Assembly (NCBI GenBank): GCA_041742355.1 | Contig: JBGSIV010000191.1 | Span: forward strand, 1-58,656 | Reading direction: 5' to 3' | DNA: 58,656 nt | Source: Candidatus Zixiibacteriota bacterium | GTDB lineage: Bacteria > Zixibacteria > MSB-5A5 > GN15 > FEB-12 | Shown here: positions 2,414 through 45,583 of the stretch, one piece after another | How positions within the stretch are numbered: the stretch's first letter is position 1 | Layout: every line of letters starts with the position of its first letter | Translations under genes and position numbers: made by a program | The notes under the pieces: generated by a model | Told to the model about the DNA's origin: nothing | Database searches by the model: none | What the model saw: the letters and a program-made list of their open reading frames with translations, nothing else

Positions 2414-2425
2414 GTGCGGACTGAT

Positions 2426-2480
<55 letters not shown>

Positions 2481-2499
<19 letters not shown>

Positions 2500-4154
2500 T
2501 TACTCAAGTTGGACGCTCCCCCGATAATCCCCAGAATCCCCTCAAGCTTCGGCTGCCCAATTAGCATCACCCCCGCTTTGCCGTCCTGGGTCGCTGGCAT
2601 GGCCGTCAGCCGTCCGATAAGCCCCGCGATATCCTGCCGTGCCGCCAAAGGGTCAGTGGTAATCAAATCCTGAAGCCGCTTCAGCCAATCTGAAATGCGA
2701 GGTGGCTCTACTCGAATCTTCTTCGCAGCCCGCCGATTCCTGTACTCCTCGAACTGCACGTTCAGCCCCGCGAGCTCGATCTCCTTCTGTTTGAGCGACT
2801 GCTGAATTGCGGCCGAGACTTCCCCGGTTCGGGCAACGTAGCCCACCAAGTTCTGGATCTCCCGGGTGACCGAAGCAATCCGCTTGTCAATCTTGTCCCG
2901 CTCTCCCCAGGCGGATTGCTGTTCTTCCTCGATAGCCTCGTTGACCTTTTCCACCAGGATCTGGACCACGTCGGGATTCAGAACCCGCTCTCGGAGCGCC
3001 GTCAATACCCTGTCCTCAATGTCGGCCTTGCGGATTCGGACGTTATTGGGGCAAGCCTTGTGGCCCCGCTGCCAGTTGAAACTGCAACCGTATACGATGT
3101 TCTCGGAATTACTCCCCCGAACCACGACATAGCTGGCTCCGCAAACCCCGCACTTCAGGAGGCCGGACATGACGTAATGGTTCCGAGGCGTCGGGTTGCC
3201 CCGGACGTATCTCCGGGAGTTACCGGCGAACCGTGCTTGCACGGCATTCCACGTGTCCTGGTCGATAATCGCCAACTTCGGGTCTTTGTGCTCTACCCAA
3301 TCGTCCTTCGGCCGCTCCACCCTCACCCGCTTGCCGGTATTCCGCTTGCGGACGTACTTGTTCTTATTCCAGGTCCAGTCTCCAATGTACTTGGTATTTT
3401 GGAGCATTACTCGAATGGCATGAGGACACCAAGTCGGATTCGGATTTCCCCTGTTGCGCTTGTCCTGGGCTGCCGGGGGTTCAATGCCTTGCTCGTTGAG
3501 CGCCGCTGCAACCGCCTTAAGGCCGTATCCATCGGCATAGAGTGCAAAGATGAGCTTGATTGCCCGAGCCTGTTCGGGGTCTACGCTGATTGCCGTGCCC
3601 AAACGCCTCGTCAGCCCGGTACTCCTGTCGCGGGCTCCAGACGGATCTAAAACAGGCTCGTACCTATACCCAAAGGTCTTTCCACCAGGATTATACCCTT
3701 GGAGAACCTGATCCTCCATACCGCGCTTCGTCTTCTTGGCGAGGTCCCGGCTGTATAGGGCATCTTTGATCCCGAAGACCGGGAGGATCACGTCTTGTGT
3801 CGTTTCGTCCTCGGTGTCGATATTATCTGACACGAAATGGACGAAGACACCTGCATCCTTCAACTCTTCGACTGACTGAAAGAGATCCAGTTTATTTCTG
3901 GCAAGTCTGGAGGTATCGTCAATCAGGACCCGATCAAACGGTCGGGGGCGCTTGGACGCTGCCCGCAGTAACTGGTGCAACGCATCCCGGCCCTCGGCGC
4001 TAGTCCCAGACACGGCGCGGTCAGCGTAAATGTGTTCCTCAGTGATAGTCCACCCGCGTTCTCGGGCACGTTTCCGGCAGTTACGGACCTGTTGCTCGAT
4101 AGAGCGGTCGTTCTGCCTGTCACTTGAGTATCTGGCGTAGATTGCACAGCGCAT
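2481..4154 (-). CDS. Large serine recombinase (integrase)
   Basis: CAIYARYSS catalytic Ser motif, DDTSRLAR, recombinase domain, Zn-ribbon LLKCGVCG..YGC..C, coiled coil; stop codon lies inside the tRNA T-arm. Confidence 0.95.
2490..2513. other. attL of the LSR element (core plus P' arm)
   Basis: P' arm GCCATTACTCAAGTTGGA (2496-2513) is the reverse complement of 24679-24696 at 16 of 18 positions. Confidence 0.85.
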
Positions 4155-4163
4155 ACTACAACT

Positions 4164-4412
4164 CTACAGCGGATTCCCCCGTTTGGCAATCACAAATGGC
4201 CGACGGCGGCGAGATTCATGCAACGATTCCGGCACCTGCTTCGCAGCTCGGCAGCACGACTGCCCGGCAGACTCCGAATCCTGCGGCGAGTTCTGCTCCT
4301 CTTCCAGGATCTTCTTCGCAATGGCCTTGGCTAGAAAATTCAGGAAGCGGTCCCAATCGGGATCGTCAAGAATCCCCTCGGATTCTCCGATATGCAGCCC
4401 CTCATCCTTCAA
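4164..4412 (-). CDS. Small hypothetical protein directly upstream of the integrase (candidate directionality factor)
   Basis: 82-aa ORF overlapping the stop of the upstream gene and ending 9 bp before the LSR start; function inferred from position only. Confidence 0.5.
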   Translation of the reverse strand: MKDEGLHIGESEGILDDPDWDRFLNFLAKAIAKKILEEEQNSPQDSESAGQSCCRAAKQVPESLHESRRRRPFVIAKRGNPL

Positions 4413-4993
4413 CGCCGTTTCTTTCGTTTCCCTATGACTTCGCTGTGCAGCTTGGCTATCTCGTAGGACATCCGAAGCATTTTGTTCGCAATTTGGGTCT
4501 GCTTGCGCCTTGACCGCGTTCGCTGGAACCGTTCCTCAAGCAGAGGCATCACGTCAAGGTAAGCGAAAAACGATGACCATTTCGTCTTGCCTTCCTGCTG
4601 GCTCTGATAGGTGAGCTTGTAGCATACCCGACAGGCGAAGTACTTCTGGCCTGGAGGCAGGTACAAAAGGCGGCACCGCCGGTAGCAGCTCGGGCAGTTG
4701 AACCACCAGCGGGAGTTGCCAAAGAAGCAGGGAGTTGTCTCCAGGCAGACGTAGTACGAGAGGTTTTCGGGTTCACCAGAGCGGGGCGTAAGGGTGTAGG
4801 TCAGTAGCAGCGAGGTTTCCGGGATGACTTTCCAAGCGATCATGCTCTCTTTCCCCAACCCACTCGTCCAGGTCGAGTAGCCTGTCTGAGCCAAGGTGAA
4901 GTCGATCTTTTTGGCAAGCCTGCTCATATCCAACCTCAGACACGCCTCCGTCTGCGTCTTTTTCCAGAAGACGCCTCGTCCTACATGAGCCAT
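4409..4993 (-). CDS. Hypothetical Cys-rich (Zn-binding) basic protein of integrative elements
   Basis: WWFNCPSC..RCRLLY..FACRVCYKLTYQSQ; ATG 4993 chosen because of a GGGAGA RBS (ORF track starts at 5008). Confidence 0.7.
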   Translation of the reverse strand: MAHVGRGVFWKKTQTEACLRLDMSRLAKKIDFTLAQTGYSTWTSGLGKESMIAWKVIPETSLLLTYTLTPRSGEPENLSYYVCLETTPCFFGNSRWWFNCPSCYRRCRLLYLPPGQKYFACRVCYKLTYQSQQEGKTKWSSFFAYLDVMPLLEERFQRTRSRRKQTQIANKMLRMSYEIAKLHSEVIGKRKKRR

Positions 4994-5236
4994 GGACATT
5001 TCTCCCACTTTTCGAAATCAATAGAGAAAGCGGACATTTCCTGAAACACTGACGCGGCGCGTACGCTGTTACTAGTCAGTAGGTTAAGTCTCCAGTTCCG
5101 AACTTCATCCGAGTGTCGCATGTGCCTTACAAATCTGGCTCTTTTTGGCTCACCAAAACTGGGCGGACAAGGTCGGTCAAGCCCCACAGAAATCTCCCCA
5201 CTGAGCCTCGATCTCACTGTACCCATATCTTATCCC

Positions 5237-6387: not shown

Positions 6388-6651
6388 TCATTGTAAATGC
6401 CCACCGAGCCCTCCCGAACTGGCCATGGCCTTGAGGGTCTTAAGTGTATCCAGGAAAGCGAGGGGTTCAACGGATGCGCGTCGGTTCACGAAGTCGATTG
6501 CGTTTCTGTCGAGATCAGGCGTTCTCTGAAGCAGAAAGGTTGCTCTGCCGCGATTGCTTTGACTAATGGAGTGCAGGGAATAGCCGGAGAGGATTAGGTA
6601 TGCAGCGAGGGCGATGTCGGGGGTTCGAAAGTCGCTGTTGGTATCTCTCAT
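6388..6651 (-). CDS. Small DUF5659-like protein
   Basis: FRTPDIALAAYL..GY..GRATF..F..VEPLAF pattern; start placed at ATG 6651, downstream of the predicted sigma-54 promoter. Confidence 0.65.
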   Translation of the reverse strand: MRDTNSDFRTPDIALAAYLILSGYSLHSISQSNRGRATFLLQRTPDLDRNAIDFVNRRASVEPLAFLDTLKTLKAMASSGGLGGHLQ

Positions 6652-6698
6652 CTCATAGCATCCATGCAGGACGATGTTTTCATCTGCACAAATGCAAA

Positions 6699-6713
6699 TC
6701 AAGAACCGTGCCA
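6699..6713 (-). promoter_or_regulatory. Putative sigma-54 (-24/-12) promoter
   Basis: Minus strand reads TGGCAC-GGTTC-TTGA against consensus TGGCAC-N5-TTGC. Confidence 0.7.
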
Positions 6714-6742
6714 ATTATGGAGAAAAAAGAGAATACAAAGAA

Positions 6743-6755
6743 TCTCAAGGGGTTA
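6743..6755 (+). promoter_or_regulatory. Putative IHF site
   Basis: TCTCAAGGGGTTA against WATCAANNNNTTR (one mismatch), with an A-rich tract on its 5' side; lies between promoter and enhancer. Confidence 0.5.
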
Positions 6756-6800
6756 CATGAAATAGCAAGAGCGGATCAAAGCGACTTTCACCTTGGCTGC

Positions 6801-6835
6801 TCGGAGTAATTCCGAAAATCTCGGAACTACTCCGA
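6801..6835. promoter_or_regulatory. Putative enhancer (UAS): two palindromes TCGGA-N5-TCCGA, centres 20 bp apart
   Basis: TCGGAGTAATTCCGA (6801-6815) and TCGGAACTACTCCGA (6821-6835). Confidence 0.6.
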
Positions 6836-8308
6836 ACCGTATTGCTTCCGCTTGACTTTGATAGTCTTGTCAGACAAGCCTGTCATCTTCGCGATCCGAT
6901 TGTCAGTGTACTGACCGTATTTCGAAAACAATCGCCGAAAGAACTGGCGGTCGAAATCTTCCTTTGCGTCTCTATAGCGGTCAATGGCTTTGCGCGGCGA
7001 TTGCTCTTCGGAAGAGGTACGAACGCTCTGCCTGAAGCCGAAGTAATTGAGGCTGATCTGTACGGCAAGTTGACTTATGGAACGCCGGTCGGCACCACCA
7101 TATCGGGGCGGCTTGGACTTTTTTCCCAGCTTGACCCCGAGATCTGGAAGGTCATCGATCAGGAGATTCCCATAGTGAAGGATTGTGACTTGCTTCGGTA
7201 TGCCTTCGAGCCTCAAGAGTCCTAAAAACTTGATCGGCTTTGAACCAATACGCATGGATGATAGAATCGTTGGTTCAATGACAGTTGAACCATCATCCGA
7301 CATTTGAGCAAGGAATCTGTAGATTCCGCTGATCGGCTTGTTGTCACTCGTTTCGCCTACTTGCAGGAAGTACAGGAACTCAAGATACTTGCGAAGCTCT
7401 ACAGAAACACCATAGGCAAGGTACCCGGGAAGGTCCTCGTCCAGTCGGCAGGCATATTCCTCCGGCTTGCAGAATATTGGCCTATTCAGTTCGAAGTACC
7501 TTTCAAGTTTTTCGTCAAGCTGTTCCGCCAGAGGATAAAACTCCGTGACGGCCGGAAAGAGGCGGATCGTCGAACCTAGCGACCTATGCGCTGCATAGGT
7601 ACAAAAAGCCCCAAGCTCACGAACATTTCCGCGCCACTCGTTGACCAGGCAGAATGCCAAGAAATGGAAGTCCATCGATTCAAAATCGAAAGGCTTGAGG
7701 TATTTCCGGAGAAGCGGAAGCATCACTTGACTACTCATCACATGCGACAGACGCTCGGTTGTGATCAGGATGGATCTAATCCTGTACAGGAGATCCGGCC
7801 GGAAATCCCGGGCATCGAAGACGTTCTTGCTCGTGGCTGCCACTATGCGCACGTCCGTCCTAACCGGAGGCTGCTCGCTGCCGAGCGGCATCACTTCCCC
7901 GGTCTCCAGGAATCGGAGCAGACCCGACTGTGCATCCGGGGGCAAGTCTCCGATTTCATCGAGAAATACGGTGCCCCCATTTGCCCTGGCAAATAGACCC
8001 TTCTTAGTGTGATCAGCCCCCGTGAATGCTCCTTTCATATGACCGAACAGCTCAGAATACAGCAGGTCGCGCGGGTAGAATGCACAGTTTATAGAGAGGA
8101 AGCGGTCCGGGCTGCGTTTGCCGTTGTCCCTAATGAGCCCTGCGATGAGTTCTTTTCCTGTGCCAGTAGGACCGTAGATTAGGACAGGCAGGTCACAGCG
8201 ACTTGCCAAATAGATCTGTTCGAAGACTTCGGGCCGTTTAGTTACCAGAATCTCAGTCGCCCTCACTAGAAAGTCCTGGAACTCCCGCGTTATTTTCGTC
8301 TGTGGCAT
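6827..8308 (-). CDS. Sigma-54-dependent enhancer-binding protein (bEBP) without an N-terminal sensor domain
   Basis: Walker A GPTGTGKE, SELFGHMKGAFTGA (intact GAFTGA), Walker B FLDEIG, FRPDLLYR, WRGNVREL, C-terminal HTH; likely start ATG 8308 (ORF track 8389). Confidence 0.9.
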   Translation of the reverse strand: MPQTKITREFQDFLVRATEILVTKRPEVFEQIYLASRCDLPVLIYGPTGTGKELIAGLIRDNGKRSPDRFLSINCAFYPRDLLYSELFGHMKGAFTGADHTKKGLFARANGGTVFLDEIGDLPPDAQSGLLRFLETGEVMPLGSEQPPVRTDVRIVAATSKNVFDARDFRPDLLYRIRSILITTERLSHVMSSQVMLPLLRKYLKPFDFESMDFHFLAFCLVNEWRGNVRELGAFCTYAAHRSLGSTIRLFPAVTEFYPLAEQLDEKLERYFELNRPIFCKPEEYACRLDEDLPGYLAYGVSVELRKYLEFLYFLQVGETSDNKPISGIYRFLAQMSDDGSTVIEPTILSSMRIGSKPIKFLGLLRLEGIPKQVTILHYGNLLIDDLPDLGVKLGKKSKPPRYGGADRRSISQLAVQISLNYFGFRQSVRTSSEEQSPRKAIDRYRDAKEDFDRQFFRRLFSKYGQYTDNRIAKMTGLSDKTIKVKRKQYGSE

Positions 8309-8514
8309 TTCGCTATTCTCTCGTTCGTGTTCTAGCTCTCCGGAACATGCCTGAATCGGCTGTCGGCTCTTGAGGTCCCCCAAAGGCATTCCCCCCAGCC
8401 GAATCGAAAGGTTAGTGAACGGGCCAGGTTCAGTTCCAAGGTGAGACTAACTTCGAGGATCGTCAACGATAATCAGTGCCGCGTCGTGAATGGCAAATCG
8501 CCCGTACCCAGCCA

Positions 8515-8799
8515 CTAAAGATCGATCCCCTTCTCCTTGGCAATCTCGGCCACTGACTTCCTTCGCGGCCGAGCCTTGATATTCTCCCGGGCAAGGTAGT
8601 CGATTAGAGCCAACGAGACAAATTCGCTCTGCGACATTCCCCGGTGCTCAGACTCGCTCTCGATTATCTCGATAATCCGCACGGGAAGGTTGAATGTCTT
8701 GGGTTTGAGTTCAATCCCTTTAGGGGGACGCCCCCGCCCATCAACTTGCTTTGTGGTCTTGGACCGGGAGAGAAGGCTGTCTTTCGTTCTCTTGACCAT
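8515..8799 (-). CDS. Ribbon-helix-helix (CopG-like) DNA-binding protein
   Basis: GRPPKG..KTFNLP..IESESEHRGMSQSEFVSLALIDYL. Confidence 0.7.
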   Translation of the reverse strand: MVKRTKDSLLSRSKTTKQVDGRGRPPKGIELKPKTFNLPVRIIEIIESESEHRGMSQSEFVSLALIDYLARENIKARPRRKSVAEIAKEKGIDL

Positions 8800-9409
8800 G
8801 ATGATTCAATCCTCCAATATCTTCGCGTGCTATAAAATCAAGCCAGTACATACTTCACGCACCTGCGAACAGCGCCAATAAGTAATAGGCGTCGTAATAT
8901 GTCAACTTTTTTTCATAATTATTTGTGTTTGTGGCGGTTGGCCTCGTCCTGGCCGAGACTCCGAAAACCTCGCTCCACTAAGACTCAGCTTGGAGAGGCC
9001 GCCGACAAGGAATCGAATGGCCGATCCGAGCAGAATTTGGCAGAGAGGTTGAGGAGCGGAAGTTCGCTTATCGCTTCAGGCGCTTAAGCTCACTTCGCGC
9101 CTCAATCGGTCTGCATGCATGATCTGATCACTAAGGCAATCAAGAAGTGGATTGACTATCCTGAAGCCACAGTGTAATTTATCATAGTCCGCTGGTCAGG
9201 AGTTGCTTAACTGGGGAGTCTAATCCCAAATCGCATGGAAGGGACTTCGCTGAGTTGCTTGAGGACTTCAACTTGTTGACTCAACTGGTGACCTGCCCGG
9301 AATCCCATTCCCGCGAATCGTGCGGAACCGGCATCAAACTGAGACAAGCGGCTCACGGGGTTCAAGACAAGATTCTGATACGGACTGTAACAACGAGGGT
9401 GGGTGATAC

Positions 9410-12400
9410 TTGAGGCTAATCCGTAATTCCGGAACCGATCGTGTTGTAGATGAGGTTCGGAGGCGGCTCCAGGGTGGGGTACAGCTTGACATCGCTTCCC
9501 CGTCCTTCTCATTGATGGCGTTTGCCGCTCTGAATGACCTCCTCTACTGTTTATCCAAAGCTCGCCTGATTCTGCCGCTTTCAGTAGAAAGCGATCTCGG
9601 ACTTTTTGGCAACGCAGATGATCGAGCAAGAAGGAACCGACTGCAGGGCCGTTGGCTTGCTAATGCCTGCGCAGATTGGATTCGAGAGAAGGCGGAAGTT
9701 AGGTCTCCTGGCAGCTTCATACCGCAGTCACTGTACGGAATCCGAAACGAGAACTTCGCCGCAACTACAATCATTACCGGAAATTGCCCCTTTACGACCA
9801 ATGGCTTGGGCATTACACCGAACGACCAGTTGAGCCTCATTAACTGCGCAGATACTCGTAGTGAGGTCGAACTTCTCTCCAATTGGTTTGAATCTCTCTG
9901 GAAATCGTTGCCCGACTCAGAAACTCCAAAGGCGTCTCTCCTCGAACGACTCCATGAGGCCGGACGGCATTTCACCCCCGCAGAAGTGTTCTTCTGCACA
10001 TTGTTCCACCTTTTCAGAGCCCGAGGAGATGAGTTGGACGAGGAACTCATCGTAAAATCGGCTACAGGAATCAGGAACACGGTGGTTTGGAGAAAGCTCT
10101 ACAAGTTCCAACGTGACGGAGTTATCGGCGCTATTGAAAAACTTGAGCGCTTTGGCGGGTGCATCATCGCTGATAGCGTTGGACTCGGAAAGACCTTCGA
10201 GGCCCTTGCGATTATCAAGTACTACGAGCTGCGGAATGATCGGGTTCTCGTGTTAGTCCCCAAGAGGTTACGAGACAATTGGACTCTGTATAAAGCCAAT
10301 GACCGGCGGAATATATTGGCCCCGGACCGGCTGAATTATGACGTTCTCAACCACACGGATCTTTCACGCGACGATGGGCTTTCAGGTGATATCGATCTTG
10401 CTCACGTCAATTGGGGCAACTACGATCTTCTCGTGATTGACGAATCACACAATTTCCGCAATAAGCCGAGTCACAAAGATCGTGAGTCTCGATACGACCG
10501 ATTGATGCAGACTATTATCCGGCAGGGAGTAAAGACACGTGTGCTCATGCTTTCAGCAACGCCTGTGAATAACCGGCTTGCCGATTTGCGAAACCAGATT
10601 GCTTTCGCGACGGAGGGAGACGACACTGCCCTCTTCGAGCACGGGATACCGAGCATCGAGGCGACGACGCGGATGGCCCAACGGCAGTTCAACCGATGGC
10701 TTGCACTGGAAGATTCGGATCGTACGCCCACTGGCCTCATAGATATGCTCGGCTTCGACTACTTCCATCTGCTCGATCTGCTTACCATCGCGAGATCCAG
10801 GAAGCACATTGAGAAGTACTACGGCACCGTGGAAACTGGGCGATTCCCAGACCGTCTCAAGCCCATTAATATCAAACCTGATGTCGATAGTGCTGGCGAA
10901 TTCAGATCAGTTAAAGAGATTAATAATGAAATCCGTCGATTGAACTTGGCCGCGTATGCCCCTCTGCGCTATGTGATGCCCCACAAGCAGGCAGCTTACG
11001 ACGCTAAGTACAGCACGGCAATTCGTGGGGGAGAAAGCTTCTTCCGGCAACTGGACAGAGAAGAGAGCTTGGTACATCTACTTCGGGTCAATGTTCTCAA
11101 ACGCATGGAGAGCTCCGTTACTTCCTTTGCCCTGACTGTTGGGAGACAGATCGCCGATGTTGAGGCAACGATAGCGAAAATCGAGGCCCATGCAGAGGCG
11201 GTTGAAGAGATCGGTATCGCCGACCTCGACATTGACGACCCCACATTTGAACCGTTGCTCGTCGGTCGAAAGGTGAAGGTGCTCCTGCAGGACGTTGACC
11301 TTGTGCGCTGGAGACAAGACCTAATCGAGGACCGCAACCGTCTGGCCACTCTCCACACGGCAGCCCGACAGGTTGGCGCTGCGCGAGACGCCAAGCTGGA
11401 GGCCCTTCGAGCAGTTATTCAGCAGAAGTGTACGCACCCGATCAACGACGGGAATCGAAAAGTAATCGTGTTCACGGCATTTGCCGACACGGCCACATAT
11501 CTCTATCAGCAACTATCGCCCTGGGCATCCGAGACACTCGGCATTCAGAGCGCCCTGGTAACCGGGACCGGGAGCAACCAGACCACAATTGTCAGCATAC
11601 GTAGAGACCTTTCTACGATTTTAACGGCCTTCTCGCCGAGATCCAAAGACTGTCCACCCGACTTGGCTCAGGAGGGTGAAATCGACTTGCTGATCGCCAC
11701 CGATTGTATCTCTGAGGGCCAGAATCTCCAGGACTGTGATTGGTTGGTGAACTACGATATACATTGGAACCCGGTCCGTATTATTCAGCGTTTCGGGCGG
11801 ATTGATCGCTTAGGCTCGCCCAATGCTCGGATTCAGCTAGTGAATTTCTGGCCCAATATGCAACTGGAGGAGTACATCAAGCTTGAGCAGCGCGTGACCG
11901 GCAAGATGGTGCTGCTTGATGTTTCGGCCACGGGAGAAGAAAACCTCATCGAGTTGCAGTCCGGCAATCAAATGAACGATTTAGAGTACAGGCGGAAGCA
12001 ACTCCTGAAGCTACAGGATGCCGTTATTGATCTGGAAGACTTGTCAAGTGGAGTCTCAATTACCGACCTTACCCTCACCGATTTTCGCATCGAGTTGGCG
12101 AGTTATCTCAAAGACCACGAGGGACATTTGAACCGCCTTCCACTTGGAGCCTATGCGGTCACCTCATCGCAGAGCTTTGGCGAAGTGACTATTCCTCCCG
12201 GAGTGGTGTTCTGCCTCAAGTCTGAGAGTAGAGCGACGGGTGAAGTCGAGGACCCGGGCTATCCCCTGAATCAGCACTACTTGGTTCACATGGGTGAGGA
12301 CGGGCAAACTTTGCTATCACCTAATCAAGTGAAGCCAATTCTGGACCGTTTGAGAAAGCTCTGCGTTGGACGGGATCACCTGGACCAAGAGGCTTGCAGG

Positions 12401-12613
12401 AGATTTGATGCATTGACCAGGAATGGTGAAGAGATGGCTGTCTACCAGAAGCTCCTGGCAGAGGCTGTTGCAGCCGTCGCCGGTCGATCCGATGAGCGAG
12501 CAGTAGAGAGTCTTTTCACGCCTGGGGGGACGTTTAGCGCCAAGGGTGAGTTTGCTGGCATGAACGACTTTGAAGTGATTGCATTCGTGATTGTTCTTCC
12601 GGAGGAGAAGTAG
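9410..12613 (+). CDS. SNF2-family helicase with an N-terminal PLD-like domain
   Basis: ADSVGLGKT, VIDESHNFRN, LSATPVNN, ATDCISEGQNLQ, QRFGRIDR; TTG start. Confidence 0.9.
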   Translation: MRLIRNSGTDRVVDEVRRRLQGGVQLDIASPSFSLMAFAALNDLLYCLSKARLILPLSVESDLGLFGNADDRARRNRLQGRWLANACADWIREKAEVRSPGSFIPQSLYGIRNENFAATTIITGNCPFTTNGLGITPNDQLSLINCADTRSEVELLSNWFESLWKSLPDSETPKASLLERLHEAGRHFTPAEVFFCTLFHLFRARGDELDEELIVKSATGIRNTVVWRKLYKFQRDGVIGAIEKLERFGGCIIADSVGLGKTFEALAIIKYYELRNDRVLVLVPKRLRDNWTLYKANDRRNILAPDRLNYDVLNHTDLSRDDGLSGDIDLAHVNWGNYDLLVIDESHNFRNKPSHKDRESRYDRLMQTIIRQGVKTRVLMLSATPVNNRLADLRNQIAFATEGDDTALFEHGIPSIEATTRMAQRQFNRWLALEDSDRTPTGLIDMLGFDYFHLLDLLTIARSRKHIEKYYGTVETGRFPDRLKPINIKPDVDSAGEFRSVKEINNEIRRLNLAAYAPLRYVMPHKQAAYDAKYSTAIRGGESFFRQLDREESLVHLLRVNVLKRMESSVTSFALTVGRQIADVEATIAKIEAHAEAVEEIGIADLDIDDPTFEPLLVGRKVKVLLQDVDLVRWRQDLIEDRNRLATLHTAARQVGAARDAKLEALRAVIQQKCTHPINDGNRKVIVFTAFADTATYLYQQLSPWASETLGIQSALVTGTGSNQTTIVSIRRDLSTILTAFSPRSKDCPPDLAQEGEIDLLIATDCISEGQNLQDCDWLVNYDIHWNPVRIIQRFGRIDRLGSPNARIQLVNFWPNMQLEEYIKLEQRVTGKMVLLDVSATGEENLIELQSGNQMNDLEYRRKQLLKLQDAVIDLEDLSSGVSITDLTLTDFRIELASYLKDHEGHLNRLPLGAYAVTSSQSFGEVTIPPGVVFCLKSESRATGEVEDPGYPLNQHYLVHMGEDGQTLLSPNQVKPILDRLRKLCVGRDHLDQEACRRFDALTRNGEEMAVYQKLLAEAVAAVAGRSDERAVESLFTPGGTFSAKGEFAGMNDFEVIAFVIVLPEEK

Positions 12614-13386
12614 TGACTACGGGGGAGTTCGTCGCAGCGTTCGAGTTTCCCCCGGAAGCACGGGTTGACCGTCGTATTCCGAAAAGCCTTCTGATTCAGA
12701 AGTGCGAGGCAACTGCGGCTGATAAGCGCCAAATCAATGAGGGCATTGAGGAGCTTTTGTGGGCCTTTGCGCTGAAGCCGTCCGGTATTGGCGTGCCGGA
12801 ATACGTGGATTCGGTACGAGAGTACCTGGAAATCGCCGTTCTGACAGTGTCATTCCGCCCTGAAGCAAAGTCCGCTCGCATTGCAGAGTTGATTCATCGG
12901 TCGATTCCGTATCCAGTTGTGCTCTTGTCAGCAATGGGAGAAGCCGTTAGTCTCTCGCTTGCTCACAAACGCTGGTCGCTGGGTGAAGGTGGAAAAGTAG
13001 TCGTGGATGATTTGTATCAAACTGGCAACCAAGGCATTGTCCGCGAGACGTTGGAATTTGAAGAGTTTCTATCCAGCCTGGCACTAACGAGAATGCCGCG
13101 AGCCGACCTCTTTGCACTTTACCAAGGCTGGGCGGACCGAATTGTAGCATTTGAGGCGGCGCGAATTACTGGTCGATTCCGCGTCCCAGATTCTCCGGCG
13201 CGGGCGGCCGAGATACGTGCCGGGCTTGACTCCTACAGTCAGCTTCGGCGAGAAATTGCCAAACTTAGAGCGGGTGCTGCGAAAGAGAAGCAGCTTAATA
13301 AACTCGTCGGGTTAAACCTTGAGATAAGACAACTTGAGGCAGACCTTTCAACAATCTGCAAAGTTTTGGGAGAGGGAGTACGATGA
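12613..13386 (+). CDS. DUF4391-family protein
   Basis: YLEIAVL..ELIHRSIPYP, C-terminal coiled coil KEKQLNKLVGLNLEI; typical position between SNF2 helicase and type III Mod. Confidence 0.8.
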   Translation: MTTGEFVAAFEFPPEARVDRRIPKSLLIQKCEATAADKRQINEGIEELLWAFALKPSGIGVPEYVDSVREYLEIAVLTVSFRPEAKSARIAELIHRSIPYPVVLLSAMGEAVSLSLAHKRWSLGEGGKVVVDDLYQTGNQGIVRETLEFEEFLSSLALTRMPRADLFALYQGWADRIVAFEAARITGRFRVPDSPARAAEIRAGLDSYSQLRREIAKLRAGAAKEKQLNKLVGLNLEIRQLEADLSTICKVLGEGVR

Positions 13387-15338
13387 AGATCTCGACAATC
13401 CTCGATCACATTGACAGTGGGCACATGGCCCTACCGGAGTTTCAAAGAGGCTACGTTTGGAACAGGGATCAGGTTCGAGCTCTTATGCTATCGCTCTATC
13501 GGCGGCATCCGGTTGGGGGATTATTGGTCTGGGCTACCGAGTCTCAGACGGCATCCCACAGGGGGGACGGACCGTTGGCAGCAGGAGTCGTCAAACTCCT
13601 GTTGGACGGGCAGCAGCGTATGACCTCAATATACGGCGTTGTCAGAGGGACACCGCCGAAATTCTTCGATGGCAACGCGGCTGCATTTACCGGGCTACGA
13701 TTCCATCTCGAAACCGAGACGTTTGCCTTTTATCAGCCCCAAAAAATGCAGGGAGATCCGCATTGGATCGACGTCACCCAGCTTATGCAGCGAGGCACCG
13801 CCGGTCTTGGGGAGTTTGTTGCTCGGTTGAGTGTGCAGCCAGGACTGGATGTAAAGCTTGGAGAATACGTTGGGCGTTTGAGCAGGTTGCTTGGGATTAC
13901 GGATGTAGACTTGCACATAGAGGAAGTGACGGGAACAGACAAGTCACTCGATATAGTAGTAGATATCTTCAACCGGGTGAACAGCGGTGGCACAAAGCTC
14001 TCGAAAGGTGATTTGGCACTGGCTAAAATCTGTGCCGATTGGCCGACTGCGCGCGACGGAATGAAGCACGCCTTGAGGGGTTGGAGCGCCAGCGGCTACC
14101 ACTTCAACCTGGATTGGTTGCTTCGGTCGGTGAATACAGTTCTGACCGGAGAGGCAAAATTCAATTTCCTTCACGACAAGTCTGCTGAGCAAGTGCAGGA
14201 AGGGCTTAAGCGGGCCATTGTCAGCACTGATACGTGCCTTAATATGATAGGGGGGCGGTTGGGCCTTGACCATGACCAAGTGCTCTTCGGCCGCTTTGCA
14301 ATCCCGGTCATGGTGCGCTACCTTGACCAACGCGGGGGAAGACTGGATTCAAAGGAGCGCGACAAGCTACTGTTCTGGTTCATGCAAGCGGGTATGTGGG
14401 GCCGTTTCTCTGGTTCTACCGAGTCCTTTATTGATCAGGACTTGGCTGCTCTCGATGACGACGGCGGCGGGCTCGATGCACTTTTGAAACAACTTCGTCT
14501 GTGGCACGGCAGCCTACGGGTTGAATCTGGCCATTTCAGCACGTGGAGTCTCGGAGCCCGGTTTTATCCTGTCCTCTATTTTATCACGCGGATGGGTGAA
14601 GCAAGGGATTGGGGTACTGGGCTGCCCCTGAAAAGTAATCTCCTCGGTAAGATGAGCAGGCTGGAAGTGCACCATATTTTCCCCAAGGCGCAGCTCTATA
14701 AGCACGGATACCGGAAGTCAGAAGTGAATGCCTTGGCTAACTTCTGTTTCCTTACTAAAGATACTAACCTGAACATCAGAGACAGGCTGCCCGAGGAGTA
14801 TTTTCCCGAGATCGAGGCAAAACACCCGGGCGCATTGGCGTCACAGTGGATTCCGACAGATCCGAGTCTCTGGAAAATCGACCGTTTCAGTGCGTTCCTG
14901 CAGGCTCGCCGAGAATTGCTCGCGGCGGAGACAAATAGGTGCCTCTGCGACTTGCTGCACGGTGAATCGGAGTGGATAGAAGTCGAATCCGCGGCAGCGC
15001 CTGCCGATATCGCATCGGCACCGATTGGAGGTATCGCTACCGACGACGAGGAGGCACAACTTGAGGCTGTGGGTGATTGGATGGAGCAGAATGGTCTGGC
15101 TCGGGGGACGAAGTCGTTCGAAATTGCGGATGAAGCCAGTGGCGATCAGCTCGCCGTTTTTGACTTGGCCTGGCCAAATGGCATTCAGGAGGGACTTTCC
15201 AAACCTGTCGCAATCTTGCTGAATGAGAGCCAGGAGGTCTTGGCGCTCGCAAGTCAGTTAGGGTTCCGTTACTTCACGGCTGTTGAGGATTTCAAGAATT
15301 ACGTGAACCGGGAGATTCTGGTGGAACAGTTGGCTTAG
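13383..15338 (+). CDS. GmrSD-type (type IV) restriction protein: DUF262 plus HNH (DUF1524-like) plus an extra C-terminal domain
   Basis: LPEFQRGYVW, LLDGQQR, IFNRVNSGG; LEVHHIFPK..NALANFCFL..N. Confidence 0.85.
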   Translation: MKISTILDHIDSGHMALPEFQRGYVWNRDQVRALMLSLYRRHPVGGLLVWATESQTASHRGDGPLAAGVVKLLLDGQQRMTSIYGVVRGTPPKFFDGNAAAFTGLRFHLETETFAFYQPQKMQGDPHWIDVTQLMQRGTAGLGEFVARLSVQPGLDVKLGEYVGRLSRLLGITDVDLHIEEVTGTDKSLDIVVDIFNRVNSGGTKLSKGDLALAKICADWPTARDGMKHALRGWSASGYHFNLDWLLRSVNTVLTGEAKFNFLHDKSAEQVQEGLKRAIVSTDTCLNMIGGRLGLDHDQVLFGRFAIPVMVRYLDQRGGRLDSKERDKLLFWFMQAGMWGRFSGSTESFIDQDLAALDDDGGGLDALLKQLRLWHGSLRVESGHFSTWSLGARFYPVLYFITRMGEARDWGTGLPLKSNLLGKMSRLEVHHIFPKAQLYKHGYRKSEVNALANFCFLTKDTNLNIRDRLPEEYFPEIEAKHPGALASQWIPTDPSLWKIDRFSAFLQARRELLAAETNRCLCDLLHGESEWIEVESAAAPADIASAPIGGIATDDEEAQLEAVGDWMEQNGLARGTKSFEIADEASGDQLAVFDLAWPNGIQEGLSKPVAILLNESQEVLALASQLGFRYFTAVEDFKNYVNREILVEQLA

Positions 15339-15409
15339 GAGACTCTAAGCTGCGGCAATTCCTCACGCGGATCTCACTTTGCTTTGACTACACCAAAGGG
15401 GCATGAAGG

Positions 15410-17308
15410 ATGAAGAAGCTTTCAGCTAACGATCTAGAGACCAAATCGGCTGATATTGTGGCTCAGAATGTTGAGCAGTTGAAGGTCCTCTTCCCCGAGG
15501 CATTCATTGAGGGTAAGATTGACTTCGAAGTGCTCAAACAGATCCTGGGCGGACAGGTAGACGAGCGGGAGGAGAAGTACGGCCTGAATTGGCATGGGAA
15601 GCGTCGGGCACGGCAATTGGCCCTCACGCCGAGCACTGGCACACTCCGCCCTTGCCCCGAGGATAGTGTTGATTGGGACACGACCCAGAACCTGTTGATT
15701 GAGGGCGATAACCTCGAAGTACTCAAACTCCTTCAGAAGAGCTTCAGCCGGAAGATTAGAGCCATCTACATTGATCCGCCCTACAACACAGGTCGCAACC
15801 TGATATATCCGAACGACTATCAGGACGGTATTCGGACATACTTGGAAGTGACAGGTCAGATTGAGGGTAGTGCAAAGCTCACGAGTAACCCCGATGCTGG
15901 AGGGCGCTTTCACACTAATTGGCTCTCAATGATTTACCCACGTCTGAAGCTAGCGAGAAATCTGCTTACGAGTGACGGTGTTTTGATATGTGCCATCGAT
16001 GATAACGAAGTCAGTCAGTTAGGGGTTGTCTTGAGGGAGATATTCGAAGAGGGTACCTATGACCACGTATGCGTACCAGTGGTGCATAATCCACGAGGAG
16101 TTCAAGGAAAGAATTTTTCTTACGTCCACGAGTACGCGTACTTCGTGTATCCGTCAGGGTTGAAAGCAATCTGTGACCGCAAGATCGAAGAGGATGAAGT
16201 CGATTGGTCTCAGTTTCGTAATTGGGGCTCAGAGTCAGAAAGAACGGATGCAAAAAATTGCTTCTATCCTGTCTTGGTGAAAGACGGACAAATCATCGGG
16301 TTCGGTGACGTATGTGATGACAGCTTCCACCCCAACCAAACAGAAGTCGCTAACGATATTGCACACGTGTATCCTATCGACAGAGCAGGTGTGGAACGCA
16401 AATGGCGCTATGCCCGTCAATCCGTCGACTCAATTGCGAGCATGCTGCGTGCAAGGAAGACGGCTTACGGCTATGAGATTGAGCTCGGCAAGACCTTTGG
16501 CTTGTACAAGACGGTGTGGCATGACAAGAGGTACGATGCGAACGATTACGGCACAGGTATGGTGGGTGACCTTGTTCCTGATTCCCCATTCACGTTCCCA
16601 AAGAGTCTTTGGGCGGTTTACGACAGCCTCCTTGCTGCGACCGGAGATGACCCCAATGCCCTGATCCTTGACTTCTTCGCTGGCAGTGGCACGACGGGAC
16701 ACGCTGTAATGGAGTTGAACAAGGAAACGGCTGGAAACCGGCGATTCATCCTTGTCCAGTTGCCCGAAGTAGTAGAAGGCAACGACAAGTTCCCGACAAT
16801 CTTCGAAGTTACTAAGGCGAGGGTCAAGGCGGCCGCTGAACAGATTAGGTCAGCAGACCCCGACTGTAGAGCTGACTTGGGCTTCCGCGTTTTCAGACTC
16901 GACAGTAGCAATATTCGCGCTTGGGAGCCGGATCGGGACGACCTTCCCAAGACCCTTGAGGAGTCGGTTCAACACCTGAAGACAGATCGAACTGAGCAGG
17001 ACATCCTCTTTGAGCTTCTTCTCAAGCTGGGCCTCGATCTCACAGTACCCATTGAAGAGAAGGCCATTGCCTGCAAGACTGTCTATAGCGTTGGGGCTGG
17101 CACCCTTTTGGTGTGTCTCGCTACGGAAATAGCGGTTCCAGAGGTAGAGCCGTTGGCGCTTGGTATCATAGAGTGGCACAAGCAGTTAGCTCCAGCCGGT
17201 GACACCCAGGTTGTCTTCCGCGACAGCGCCTTTGCTAACGACGTGGCTAAGACCAACTTAGCGGCTATCCTCCAACAGCATGGGTTGGAGAATGTAAGGA
17301 GCTTGTAA
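15410..17308 (+). CDS. mod: Type III R-M methyltransferase (Mod)
   Basis: LIEGDNLEVLK, IYIDPPYNTG (motif IV), DFFAGSGTTG (motif I), beta-class order. Confidence 0.95.
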   Translation: MKKLSANDLETKSADIVAQNVEQLKVLFPEAFIEGKIDFEVLKQILGGQVDEREEKYGLNWHGKRRARQLALTPSTGTLRPCPEDSVDWDTTQNLLIEGDNLEVLKLLQKSFSRKIRAIYIDPPYNTGRNLIYPNDYQDGIRTYLEVTGQIEGSAKLTSNPDAGGRFHTNWLSMIYPRLKLARNLLTSDGVLICAIDDNEVSQLGVVLREIFEEGTYDHVCVPVVHNPRGVQGKNFSYVHEYAYFVYPSGLKAICDRKIEEDEVDWSQFRNWGSESERTDAKNCFYPVLVKDGQIIGFGDVCDDSFHPNQTEVANDIAHVYPIDRAGVERKWRYARQSVDSIASMLRARKTAYGYEIELGKTFGLYKTVWHDKRYDANDYGTGMVGDLVPDSPFTFPKSLWAVYDSLLAATGDDPNALILDFFAGSGTTGHAVMELNKETAGNRRFILVQLPEVVEGNDKFPTIFEVTKARVKAAAEQIRSADPDCRADLGFRVFRLDSSNIRAWEPDRDDLPKTLEESVQHLKTDRTEQDILFELLLKLGLDLTVPIEEKAIACKTVYSVGAGTLLVCLATEIAVPEVEPLALGIIEWHKQLAPAGDTQVVFRDSAFANDVAKTNLAAILQQHGLENVRSL

Positions 17309-17369
17309 ATAAGGGAAACTTCCTTTTAGCCCCGTAAAAGGGGGCCGGGCTTAAGCTATTGAGGCTTGA

Positions 17370-17405
17370 TTTTGTCACGAAAAGTGTATACTTTTCGTGA
17401 CAAAA
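17370..17405. promoter_or_regulatory. Perfect 16-bp inverted repeat, probable AbiEi operator
   Basis: TTTTGTCACGAAAAGT-gtat-ACTTTTCGTGACAAAA overlapping TATACT (17387-17392) and abutting the AAGGAG RBS. Confidence 0.8.
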
Positions 17406-17419
17406 GGAGCCTGAATATT

Positions 17420-18043
17420 ATGGCGCAAGGCTTAAGCCAGCAAATACTTGCAAGAATATACCAGTTTGAGAGGGGTAAGGTTTTTACTCCAAAGGATTTT
17501 TTAGACCTTGCAAGCCACGAAACCACAAGAAAGACATTAGAGCGTCTGACTAAGCAAGGGACAATCCGTCGCCTCTTGCGGGGAGTCTATGAATACCCAG
17601 TATTTAGCACACTGTTTCAGGCTCCAGCCAGCCCTGATCCCGATGCTATCGCCAGAGCAATTGCCAGAGCTCATGGGTGGACGATTCTGCCATCAGGAGA
17701 GACAGCATTAAACCTACTCGGACTGTCTACTCAAGTCCCCGCCAAATGGGAGTATTTTAGCGACGGTCCTTCTAAGATCTACGAATGGCAGGGAGGGAAG
17801 CTCATATTCAAACGCCGAACCAACAAAGAGACAACAATTCTCTCACCCAAAACCGCCTTGCTGGTTCAGGCACTCAAGACCCTCGGCGAGGAGCACGTCT
17901 CGGAATCTGTGATAGTCGCGCTTCAAGCCAAACTCGGTGCCGAGGACCGAAAACGTGCCGCCCGAGAGGCCCAGTATGCGACATCATGGGTGTATGAGAT
18001 AATAAAGCGGCTGGCGGCAGACAACGAGTCAGGCAATGCGTGA
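17420..18043 (+). CDS. AbiEi-like antitoxin/transcriptional regulator (DUF6088-like)
   Basis: N-terminal wHTH (VFTPKDFLDL..LERL..GTIRRLLRGVY), ALNLLGLSTQVP; ATG 17420 after AAGGAG. Confidence 0.85.
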   Translation: MAQGLSQQILARIYQFERGKVFTPKDFLDLASHETTRKTLERLTKQGTIRRLLRGVYEYPVFSTLFQAPASPDPDAIARAIARAHGWTILPSGETALNLLGLSTQVPAKWEYFSDGPSKIYEWQGGKLIFKRRTNKETTILSPKTALLVQALKTLGEEHVSESVIVALQAKLGAEDRKRAAREAQYATSWVYEIIKRLAADNESGNA

Positions 18044-19169
18044 TATAGCTCGGCGTTCAACAAAAGATAGGCGAGACCTATTCATGGGCACAGCCGAGGC
18101 CATGAAAGTGCATCAAGCCATTGTGGAAAAGGACTTCTGGGTATGTTGGATTTTGGACTATCTGTTTCAGGAGAGTCCGTGGAAAGATGATCTTGCCTTC
18201 AAAGGTGGAACCAGCCTGTCAAAGGGATACGGAGCCATCGAGAGATTCTCAGAGGACATAGATCTTATCCTCGATTGGAAGATATTGGGTTATTCCGATG
18301 AGGAGCCGTGGAGGGAGCGGAGTACAACTCAGCAGGACAAGTTCTGTAAGGTTGTCGTAAAACGCACTGTCGACTACTTGAGGAACGAATTCGCTACTGC
18401 ATTGACTCCAGCATTGGCAGAGCGAATCGACGCTGGTGCTGCTGGTGCCGCTGCTGCCGCTGCTGCCGCTGCCGCAAGAGGAATGACCGTCTCTAATTCG
18501 CAAGGTGACAGTGATAGTGGCGGTGGTGCTGGTGCTGGTGCCGACAGAGATGAAGAAGTAGGTGGCATCAATGTAGAAGTGAGCGCAGATGGCGAGGCTT
18601 TGTTGGTGCGATATCCAAGAGCCTTTTCGTTAGAAGCCATTCAACCGGAAATCAGGCTCGAAATTGGACCACTTTCAGAAGCGGTCCCGAACGAATTGAG
18701 GGCCATTTCCCCCTTTGCTGCCCAGGTTTTCCCAGAGATTTTCACGCAGCGCAGCACTAGCGTGACGACTATCCGAGCGGAGAGGACGTTTTGGGAGAAG
18801 GCGACAATCCTCCACCAAGAAGCACACCGCAGCATTGAGCGACCACTCCCTAGACGGTATTCCCGGCACTATTACGATCTGTATCGTCTTAGTTGTCTGC
18901 CGATAAGAAGCAGTGCGCTCAGGCAGATGGATCTGCTGAAGCAAGTCGTTGAGTTCAAGTCAAAATTCTACTACTGCTCCTGGGCTAAGTTCGGAGACGC
19001 TAAGCCGGGGACGCTCAAGTTGCTTCCTCCGGCCCACTACAAGGCCGATCTGGAGAGAGATTATCAATCCATGAGGGCGATGCTCTTCGGTTCTGTTCCG
19101 AGTTTCGAGGACATTATCAATGGGTTGAAGGCCTTGGAGGAAGAAATCAACCAACTACCTGGATTCTGA
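18036..19169 (+). CDS. AbiEii-family nucleotidyltransferase toxin
   Basis: VEKDFWV, FKGGTSLSK..IERFSEDIDL, RTFWEKATILH, SRHYYDL. Confidence 0.92.
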   Translation: MRDIARRSTKDRRDLFMGTAEAMKVHQAIVEKDFWVCWILDYLFQESPWKDDLAFKGGTSLSKGYGAIERFSEDIDLILDWKILGYSDEEPWRERSTTQQDKFCKVVVKRTVDYLRNEFATALTPALAERIDAGAAGAAAAAAAAAARGMTVSNSQGDSDSGGGAGAGADRDEEVGGINVEVSADGEALLVRYPRAFSLEAIQPEIRLEIGPLSEAVPNELRAISPFAAQVFPEIFTQRSTSVTTIRAERTFWEKATILHQEAHRSIERPLPRRYSRHYYDLYRLSCLPIRSSALRQMDLLKQVVEFKSKFYYCSWAKFGDAKPGTLKLLPPAHYKADLERDYQSMRAMLFGSVPSFEDIINGLKALEEEINQLPGF

Positions 19170-19171
19170 TA

Positions 19172-25063: not shown

Positions 25064-25702
25064 ATGTGCGCGCGAAGCTCAAAGAGCAAATCGTCGATTG
25101 GGGTGAGCTCCGGAATTGGGGAAGCCCTGTTTCCCAAGATACGGCGGAAAGCACTTGCGCTCTTCTTGCTGAATCCCGACAAACGCTACTACTTCCGAGA
25201 GGCGGTCAGGCTCTTGGGCGACACACCGGGTTCACTCCAGCGGGAGCTCAAGACGCTTACCGCCGCCGGTATACTGACAGTGGAGCCAATTGGCATTCAG
25301 AAGTTCTACCGCGCCAACTCCGACAGTCCGGTCTTCGGTGAACTCAAGGCAATAGCCGAGAAGACGTTTGGCATCGCGGATGTTATCCGTGACATCCTCC
25401 GGACACAAGCCGAATCGAAGATTGGCCTGGCCTGGATCTACGGTTCAGTCGCCAGCGGTCAGGATACCAGTTCAAGTGATATTGATCTCATGGTAGTTGG
25501 AAGCTTGTCATTTCGCGAGTTGGTTGCTATCCTGAAGCCGGTGGAAGAACACATGCAGCGGCCAATCAATCCGACGCTGTATGCGGAGAGTGAGTTTCGA
25601 CAGAAGGTCCGAGAAGGAAACCACTTTCTCCTCAACGTGCTGAAGTCGGACAAGCTATTCGTGATGGGGAACGAAGATGACCTTGGAAGACTGGCTCAGT
25701 AG
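25064..25702 (+). CDS. HTH plus minimal nucleotidyltransferase (MNT antitoxin)
   Basis: N-terminal wHTH; IYGSVASGQDTSSSDIDLMVV (GS-x10-DxD); true start may be GTG 25103. Confidence 0.88.
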   Translation: MCARSSKSKSSIGVSSGIGEALFPKIRRKALALFLLNPDKRYYFREAVRLLGDTPGSLQRELKTLTAAGILTVEPIGIQKFYRANSDSPVFGELKAIAEKTFGIADVIRDILRTQAESKIGLAWIYGSVASGQDTSSSDIDLMVVGSLSFRELVAILKPVEEHMQRPINPTLYAESEFRQKVREGNHFLLNVLKSDKLFVMGNEDDLGRLAQ

Positions 25703-38882: not shown

Positions 38883-38930
38883 CTCATAACCCGAAGGTCG
38901 GAGGTTCAAATCCTCCCCCCGCCACCATAA
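38883..38930 (+). repeat. Duplicated 3' half of tRNA-fMet including CCA (outer attR)
   Basis: CTCATAACCCGAAGGTCGGAGGTTCAAATCCTCCCCCCGCCA-CCATAA. Confidence 0.95.
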
Positions 38931-45440: not shown

Positions 45441-45455
45441 CGGCACGCTGGTTGT
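45441..45455 (+). promoter_or_regulatory. Putative sigma-54 promoter of the PGA operon
   Basis: CGGCAC-GCTGG-TTGT; TGT-N10-ACA at 45258-45273 as a possible enhancer. Confidence 0.55.
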
Positions 45456-45583
45456 TATCCTTCTTTTCGAGTGTGAGTGCCCGGCGACCGGTGCGGCGCG
45501 TGTTTCCGTACCGAGGATGTCTGGGCCATGACAACCGAGCGGACCGAGGCGACGACCCGAGTCAAACATCAGGAGGTGGCGAT

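Follow-up and report, generated by a model that had tools for sequence, protein, structure and literature searches.

A putative sigma-54 activator, enhancer and promoter unit ahead of the rep and integrase genes of a mobile island in a Zixibacteria-type genome

What controls the excision and replication of an integrated mobile element whose rep-like and integrase genes lie directly behind a gene for a transcriptional activator? The question is raised by a mobile island of ~36.5 kb (~2458-38924), which is inserted in the tRNA-Met gene of a Zixibacteria-type genome (Candidatus Zixiibacteriota bacterium, assembly GCA_041742355.1). It was analysed in a stretch of 58,656 nt, i.e. positions 1 to 58,656 of contig JBGSIV010000191.1, hereafter called the window. 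The island encodes a bacterial enhancer-binding protein (bEBP), and the bEBP gene is followed by two palindromes, a -24/-12 element of the sigma-54 type, and an operon that starts with a DUF5659 gene, includes a rep-like gene, and ends with the gene of a large serine recombinase (LSR). The sigma-54 holoenzyme cannot open a promoter without an ATP-hydrolysing activator, and there is almost no basal activity. On balance, we consider it probable that the rep/integrase operon is preceded by a sigma-54 promoter typical of the lineage, and that the element-encoded bEBP opens this promoter from a twin-dyad enhancer of its own. The components of the proposed switch are the following:

6827..8389, minus strand: bEBP, 520 aa in total or 493 aa if M28 (8308) is the start; residues 54-270 form the AAA+ domain, ~270-460 an orphan insert, and ~470-520 a predicted helix-turn-helix (HTH)
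6801-6815 and 6821-6835, no strand: two TCGGA-N5-TCCGA dyads, putative bEBP enhancer, with four half-sites in a 10-bp phase
6720..6755, no strand: AT-rich stretch with an A6 tract and a match to the binding site of integration host factor (IHF), weak
6699..6713, minus strand: sigma-54 -24/-12 element TGGCACGGTTCTTGA; the GG pair occupies 6712-6711, and the A of the -12 element lies at 6699

The original prediction had pointed to a TGGCAC-N5-TTGA motif at 6713-6699 on the minus strand, to twin palindromes ~95-115 bp upstream of its -24 element, and to a bEBP gene with an intact GAFTGA motif directly before the promoter. All three were recovered: the motif is present and fits the host sigma-54 consensus, the centres of the palindromes lie 97 and 117 bp upstream, and GAFTGA occupies residues 120-125 of a protein that matches Sigma54_activat (PF00158) with 3.4e-51 and 173.7 bits, against a cut-off of 20.2 bits.

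TGGCACGGTTCTTGA has GG at -24 and TTG(A) at -12, one helical turn apart, and lies inside a gap of 175 nt that separates the end of the bEBP gene (stop, 6827) from the first codon of DUF5659 (6651). Transcription is predicted to start at ~6687, which would leave a leader of 36 nt before the DUF5659 ATG. TGGCACGGTTCTTGA is the sole TGGCAC-N5-TTGM match in the 58.6-kb window, where 0.28 matches were expected and 24 of 100 shuffled sequences contained at least one. Genome-wide, 87 instances of YGGCAC-N5-TTG[ACT] were found on both strands of 4.37 Mb, which by our arithmetic yields a value of ~0.002 for one instance in that gap and on that strand. A consensus scan of the minus strand of the gap (6651-6827) found no sigma-70-like promoter. 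The host contains rpoN (433 bits, above the cut-off; G000:C214:41641-43005).

For comparison, we estimated the intergenic fractions of the motif variants in the host genome. Of 29 copies of YGGCAC-N5-TTGA, 8 lie between genes (p=0.0036), as do 8 of 28 copies of the TTGC variant (p=0.0028), with values of 6 of 30 for TTGT and 1 of 15 for TTGG (not enriched); the baseline was a crude intergenic fraction of 9%, derived from rough longest-ORF (open reading frame) gene calls that mis-scored TGGCACGGTTCTTGA itself as coding. Sites of the TTGA type adjoin host bEBP genes on three contigs (C92, C263, and C215). A host promoter matrix was built from 22 host intergenic sites, with TGGCACGGTTCTTGA left out. 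The matrix score of TGGCACGGTTCTTGA is 20.8 bits, i.e. rank 12 of ~8.7 million scored positions on both strands, and 18 positions of the genome reach values of at least 20 bits. The next best site within the element has 13.1 bits and starts at 9038, and no other site lies above this value. This weaker sigma-54-like site, TGGCAGAGAGGTTGA (9038-9052, plus strand), is located in the divergent gap between a ribbon-helix-helix (RHH) gene and an operon of SNF2 and Type III restriction-modification (R-M) genes; no copy of the dyad was found near it.

A high-scoring TTGA site also precedes the host hsp20 gene (G000:C96:3734-3748), and this gene was used for footprinting in 60 other genomes of the family, 45 of which matched, with 29 loci analysed (L148-L176). 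For 25 of the 29 loci, TGGCA[CT]-N5-TTG[A/T] was found 73-148 nt before the inferred start, and four loci have no site. The -12 base in the 25 promoters is A in 13 cases, T in 12 cases, and C in none. Since the hsp20 promoters of the relatives carry A or T and never C, the comparison indicates that the sigma-54 -12 element in this Zixibacteria family is TTG[A/T], not TTGC. Consensus scans for sigma-54 regulons would overlook such promoters if they require GC at -12. Taken with the host matrix, TGGCACGGTTCTTGA looks like a real sigma-54 promoter.

The putative activator is started at M28 (8308) by gene callers. Its motifs are intact in the translation and in a three-sequence alignment, i.e. Walker A (G73-E80), GAFTGA, Walker B (D144 and E145), and sensor II (GNVRE, 254-258). 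Domain searches found no N-terminal regulatory domain (receiver, GAF, PAS, V4R, or CARF) in the 26-53 residues before the AAA+ domain. Such a domain is not obligatory for bEBPs, as the PspF type illustrates: PspF and HrpR/S are bEBPs without an N-terminal sensor, their AAA+ domain lies near the N-terminus, and control therefore comes from elsewhere. The last ~55 residues of the island bEBP align with the C-terminal HTH ends of other bEBPs, and the ~190 residues between the AAA+ domain and the HTH form the orphan insert. The host encodes ~23 bEBPs; the best paralogue of the island protein is 43% identical in the AAA+ domain only, which argues that the island bEBP is not a recent copy of a host gene.

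The window contains exactly two copies of TCGGA-N5-TCCGA. The genome contains 10 (~5 expected), and the two island copies are the sole pair separated by 60 nt or less. Any other match of the genome to the complete array of four half-sites has at least 4 mismatches. Relative to the G of the -24 element (6711), the dyad centres lie 97 and 117 bp further upstream, which places them at ~-121 and ~-141, so that the pair, 20 bp apart, falls within the range of ~80-150 bp upstream that is found for bEBP enhancers. The 10-bp phase of the half-sites is as expected for two HTH dimers on the same helix face. Downstream of the dyads, the A6 tract (6720-6728) might by itself introduce a bend.

A precedent for this arrangement is AtoC of E. 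coli. Its binding site upstream of atoDAEB, which has a sigma-54 promoter, is a 40-bp palindrome that consists of two 20-bp sites in inverted orientation (PMC3118216). The atoC gene and its target operon follow each other on one strand, as the bEBP gene and its putative target do in the island, and the AtoC enhancer is a long palindrome like the putative one of the island (PMC3118216). In contrast to the island bEBP, AtoC belongs to the response regulators, contains a receiver domain, and serves chromosomal fatty-acid catabolism; the island protein has no receiver, contains the orphan insert, and its target would be a rep/integrase operon. Two other readings of the palindrome were rejected. 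It is not a REP-like repeat (repetitive extragenic palindrome), because the array is unique in the genome, and it is not an attP site, because the attP of an integrated element is split between its two ends, here 2458-2499 and 38883-38924.

The genes behind the promoter are the following:

6388..6651, minus strand: DUF5659 protein (PF18903, 2.8e-9), first gene after the promoter; the ATG at 6651 gives 87 aa
5545..6348, minus strand: p267, rep-like (PriCT-like N-terminal part and winged HTH), by orthology to L048
5237..5548, minus strand: p103, small ORF with a 4-nt overlap with p267, homologue in L047 and L054
4981..5226, minus strand: p81, small ORF with a weak match to phrog_18333
4409..5008, minus strand: p199, conserved element protein of no known family, with 39-46% identical homologues in the same position in L048, L050, L054, and L056
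4164..4412, minus strand: 82-aa ORF of no family, with a TTG start that overlaps the p199 stop, ending 9 nt before the LSR start
2481..4154, minus strand: LSR, 557 aa, last gene of the operon, with a stop codon that overlaps the tRNA

The intergenic distances across the seven genes are 39, -4, 10, -28, -4, and 9 nt. Because the genes are so tightly packed, a single transcript from DUF5659 to LSR is the simplest reading. The LSR contains three Pfam domains, all above their cut-offs (Resolvase, 1.2e-28; Recombinase, 1.4e-24; Zn_ribbon_recom, 2.6e-13), and it matches the PHROG integrase family phrog_95 (2.5e-91). The protein p267 itself has no Pfam match above the cut-off; a PHROG search gave a primase match (1.4e-4), and a profile of three orthologues gave a weak match to a winged-HTH regulator. 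Its 45% identical orthologue in L048 matches PriCT_1 (9.6e-7, 28.8 bits versus a cut-off of 21.1) and HTH_36 (1.8e-6). As the domain matches sit in the orthologue, the label "rep" is assigned to p267 by orthology.

The switch would most likely operate as follows. The DUF5659-LSR core operon would be transcribed from the sigma-54 promoter at 6713-6699, and its activator would be the island's own bEBP, encoded immediately upstream. Two bEBP dimers would occupy the four TCGGA/TCCGA half-sites through the C-terminal HTH. A bEBP hexamer would then assemble, loop over the AT-rich spacer, touch sigma-54 via GAFTGA, and open the promoter. Because an N-terminal sensor is missing, the activity of the bEBP would be set by the orphan 190-aa insert or by the amount of the protein, and a gene upstream of the bEBP gene encodes a candidate repressor of the bEBP level:

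8515..8799, minus strand: 94-aa RHH-like protein with a GGAGG ribosome site and weak CopG-like matches (phrog_3887 and phrog_7325; 1.9e-5 and 1.4e-4)

The motifs and their uniqueness, the host consensus, the packing of the genes, and the borders of the island were established here; we infer the binding of the bEBP, the activation of the promoter, and the gating of excision and replication, and the same holds for the trigger of the bEBP and for the place of the RHH protein above it. The sigma-54 enhancer-promoter architecture claimed by the original prediction is borne out in the layout of bEBP, dyads, AT-rich stretch, -24/-12 element, and operon, in the presence of rpoN, and in the island borders, with the exception of its IHF element. 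The IHF-like sequence TCTCAAGGGGTTA does lie at 6743-6755 (centre ~-62) and agrees with the consensus WATCAANNNNTTR in 12 of 13 positions. We gave it no weight, because one-mismatch matches occur at chance level: the window contains 39 (23 expected), i.e. ~1 per 1.5 kb. In addition, the two HU/IHF-family proteins of the host are both under the IHF alpha/beta cut-offs (93 versus 111-115 bits).

A bEBP gene followed by a sigma-54 promoter is not confined to this island. When viral contigs were scanned with the three-protein alignment, 229 candidates were obtained, of which 117 were confirmed as bEBP relatives and 80 were kept (L059-L138, IMG/VR). In 31 of the 80 contigs, a short bEBP without HTH (245-310 aa) is followed within 60 nt and on the same strand by TGGCA[CT]-N5-TTGCT (e.g. 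L092:7890-8675 and L118:7872-8675), showing that the gene-then-promoter layout recurs on mobile DNA. At the 10 loci examined, genes for an exonuclease, a Sak4-like annealase, an HNH protein, and a dNMP kinase were found downstream. These units thus resemble the island in that an element-encoded bEBP precedes a same-strand sigma-54 promoter before genes of DNA metabolism. They differ in that the bEBP has no HTH, the promoter lies 0-50 nt after the stop, there is no enhancer, and the -12 element is the canonical TTGC. Homologues of LSR, DUF5659, and p267 are absent from all 80 contigs, and no named phage relative of the short bEBPs with at least 60% identity was found in 50,697 phage records.

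Several results weigh against the proposed switch, among them those of the comparison with related elements. DUF5659 is present in 34 of 285 genomes of the phylum, and 29 loci other than that of the island were compared (±1.5 kb). A bEBP is encoded at none of the 29 loci, nor at four extended and three further loci, and a -24/-12 site in the matching position was found at none of the 29 (one loose match lies at -235, in L045). Seven related modules contain DUF5659 and/or p267, p199, and LSR (L047=L053, L048=L057, L049, L050, L054, L055, and L056). None of them includes a bEBP, with 2.7-8 kb of upstream sequence covered in L050, L049, L054, L055, and L056. The co-conservation of bEBP, promoter, and LSR that had been proposed as a check was therefore negative. 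In L056 (5925-7355) and L050 (10044-11453), the slot before DUF5659 is occupied by unrelated ~470-aa proteins that belong to no Pfam family; the two share a C-terminal domain of 75 residues with 39% identity. This position may be an exchangeable regulator slot. The comparison indicates that the island acquired its unit of bEBP and promoter by a one-off replacement, and conservation lends no support to the switch. As a separate observation, the same element type (p267 45% identical, identical tblastn statistics) occurs in L056 and L057, in one metagenome-assembled genome labelled Dehalococcoidia and one labelled Zixibacteria, which points to transfer or to a binning error.

The activator itself adds to these points. 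The HTH_50 match of its C-terminus is weak (0.0025, 17.9 bits versus a cut-off of 27), and no family lies above its cut-off there. Residues 270-520 have no homologue in the 284 other genomes of the phylum, a search of a word-indexed collection with the C-terminal 251 residues gave just the protein itself, and a search of 1.84 billion representatives gave no more than two distant full-length relatives plus one match confined to the HTH. A PDB sequence search with the insert gave nothing, and a metagenome scan for relatives gave an ordinary bEBP (L058). The proteins P0003 (455 aa, on a 17.4-kb contig) and P0004 (474 aa, on a 2.4-kb contig) align end to end with the island bEBP at 33-34% identity, and in the alignment their GAFTGA loops read KAFTGV and GSYTNV, respectively. 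Internal promoters ahead of the LSR gene are possible. The contrast with a CI/SOS repressor that the original prediction drew is not supported; the RHH-like gene just upstream of the bEBP gene could be the real decision point.

The dyads can also be read as RNA. They pair as a 17-bp stem on the bEBP transcript, overlapping the bEBP stop TAG at 6829-6827, and a stretch of 101 nt folds with -44.8 kcal/mol (z = -6.3 versus shuffled sequences). The two 15-mers are inverted copies of each other, and their spacers are complementary in 4 of 5 positions, with a G-U pair on the transcribed strand as the fifth, which favours a hairpin because a pure protein site needs no such complementarity. The promoter might be real and the 35-bp inverted repeat chiefly an RNA structure by which the bEBP transcript is terminated or stabilised, with the promoter being fired by one of the ~22 other bEBPs of the host or by the island bEBP from solution, in which case no dedicated enhancer would be used, and the viral bEBPs without HTH, which adjoin promoters without room for an enhancer, speak for the same account. 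We nevertheless regard it as unlikely. The idea that the palindromes are the terminator hairpin of the bEBP gene, which the original prediction had named as a competing role, agrees with the 17-bp hairpin at the stop and disagrees with the lack of a T-run after the stem, which the terminator of the host hsp20 gene does have. Moreover, each arm is itself a 5+5 palindrome (a ~1-in-1000 chance by our arithmetic), which is not required by a hairpin, the half-sites follow a 10-bp phase, the position at -121/-141 is typical of enhancers, and the bEBP has kept its predicted C-terminal HTH. The lack of a T-run, the palindromic arms, and the AtoC precedent thus favour a protein site, and the dyads may have both roles.

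The match to the -24/-12 consensus might be coincidental. The operon would then be transcribed by the housekeeping holoenzyme or by read-through, as could be imagined from the seven related elements, all of which have the same operon without bEBP or sigma-54 site, and the bEBP would be cargo that regulates e.g. the defence genes, which the weaker site at 9038 faces, or nothing. Furthermore, TGGCACGGTTCTTGA was first picked by eye. However, its rank in the genome, the low value for gap and strand, and the lack of a sigma-70-like site in the gap argue against a coincidence, as does the location of a genome-unique dyad array exactly between activator and promoter, with none near 9038, so that this explanation appears improbable to us. 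An inverted repeat together with an AT-rich tract upstream of a rep module is also a common layout of replication origins, and three other putative DNA-binding proteins are encoded nearby, so that the repeat and its spacer might be such an origin, or else the operator of another island protein (rep, DUF5659, or RHH). We consider this very unlikely: an origin is disfavoured because the relatives share the rep module without a comparable repeat (six regions upstream of DUF5659 or rep, with just imperfect, non-dyadic repeats of 12-18 nt), and the repeat was found solely in the element that carries the bEBP.

Compared with known systems, the proposed bEBP-driven promoter would be an unusual control of mobility for a mobile element. 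Mobile elements are usually described as kept in place by repressors (CI, SetR, ImmR) or switched by quorum or stationary-phase signals. Developmentally timed LSRs that are expressed solely under an alternative transcription programme include SpoIVCA of the skin element (sigma-E) and XisF of the fdxN element, and the XisF model matches the island LSR with 2.8e-27, below the cut-off. The island LSR would share this type of control, and it would differ in that SpoIVCA and XisF belong to domesticated elements under sigma-70-family factors and host regulators, in contrast to sigma-54 and an activator carried by the element. The repressor switches of phages and integrative and conjugative elements (ICEs; CI/LexA-SOS, SetR) likewise make the decision to stay or to excise. 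They work by relief of repression or with factors of the sigma-70 family, whereas a sigma-54 promoter is silent by default and requires ATP-driven activation. An alternative sigma factor is also used by ICEclc, whose integrase promoter Pint depends on RpoS (PMC5812530); this review mentions rpoN in the reference list alone.

Among individual activators, the AAA+ part of the island bEBP is matched best by the NCBIfam model RtcR (5.2e-54, 184 bits versus an equivalog cut-off of 650) and by the PADLOC model RtcR_PspF2 (2.5e-60), followed by NCBIfam pspF models (7.9e-40, far below the cut-off). The likeness to RtcR is restricted to the AAA+ domain, as the island bEBP has no CARF domain and no rtcBA genes are present. 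With PspF it shares the AAA+ domain that starts near the N-terminus. PspF is held by PspA, and no PspA-like gene was seen here; in addition, the island bEBP has its extra residues between AAA+ and HTH. In the literature, a sigma-54-type regulator was noted for phage phi1422 (PMC3391216), and sigma-54 promoters were predicted before transposases, with chaperones described as sigma-54-controlled in Bacteroidota (PMC12316311). No paper on the control of excision or of an LSR element by a bEBP or sigma-54 was found in a search of listings and abstracts, and the terms "large serine recombinase" and "sigma-54" together gave 0 papers.

If the bEBP, its enhancer, and the sigma-54 promoter act as proposed, the island would turn on its excision and replication under very tight, energy-checked control, because a sigma-54 promoter fires solely upon remodelling of the closed complex by an ATPase. 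This would be a new regulatory logic for integrative elements and would provide a compact, self-contained cassette of activator, enhancer, and promoter from an uncultured phylum; the orphan insert would point to a new sensor domain. Both the TTG[A/T] form of the -12 element and the viral pairs of bEBP and promoter bear on the prediction of sigma-54 regulons. A bolder extension, which we put forward with considerable doubt, is that the insert is a new sensor (e.g. of phage attack or DNA damage) that triggers all-or-none excision and replication of a defence-carrying island, and that sigma-54 activators borne by elements form an overlooked class of master switches, of which the viral units would be the phage version.

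The borders and the cargo of the island are as follows:

2425..2500, plus strand: tRNA-Met (CAT; ARAGORN), the 3' part of which (2458-2499) is the left copy of a 42-bp direct repeat (attL side)
38883..38924, plus strand: attR-side (right) copy of the repeat, 100% identical to the left copy in all 42 nt (blastn)
9410-22141: defence cargo with a SNF2 helicase (HKD and Snf2-like), DUF4391, a GmrSD-like protein, a Type III methyltransferase, AbiEi/AbiEii between Mod and Res, and a Type III restriction enzyme

The repeat is perfect, and a blastn repeat search found no third copy. The GC content is 0.51-0.56 between the two copies, versus ~0.60 outside. DUF5659 is absent from all three genomes of the same genus. 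In one of them (G101), the tRNA is present and the module proteins are all missing, and in another (G099) just a 49-aa remnant from the C-terminus of a related LSR lies beside tRNA-Met (L144, G099:C3, 11639-11847; 67% identity). Judging from this remnant, tRNA-Met may serve as a recurrent landing pad, at which an element has decayed in G099. The tRNA repeats, the GC shift, and the absence from close relatives show that the locus is a bona fide integrative element. The cargo comprises the Type III R-M pair with the embedded AbiE pair, and no genes for conjugation or virions were seen in the island. Contigs from four DNA runs covered small pieces, which were near-identical except for one divergent stretch of p267; variation in the promoter gap was uninformative.

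The island further contains a PDC-M05A candidate at 25064-25702 and an ORF of 2821 aa (27898-36363, plus strand), the sole match of which is a faint one to DUF6443. Outside the island, a second, host-side bEBP is encoded at 42245-43678 (minus strand). A very strong sigma-54 site, CGGCACGCTGGTTGT (45441-45455, plus strand), with a score of 23.3 bits lies ~1.8 kb from this gene, before an ORF at 45452-47413.

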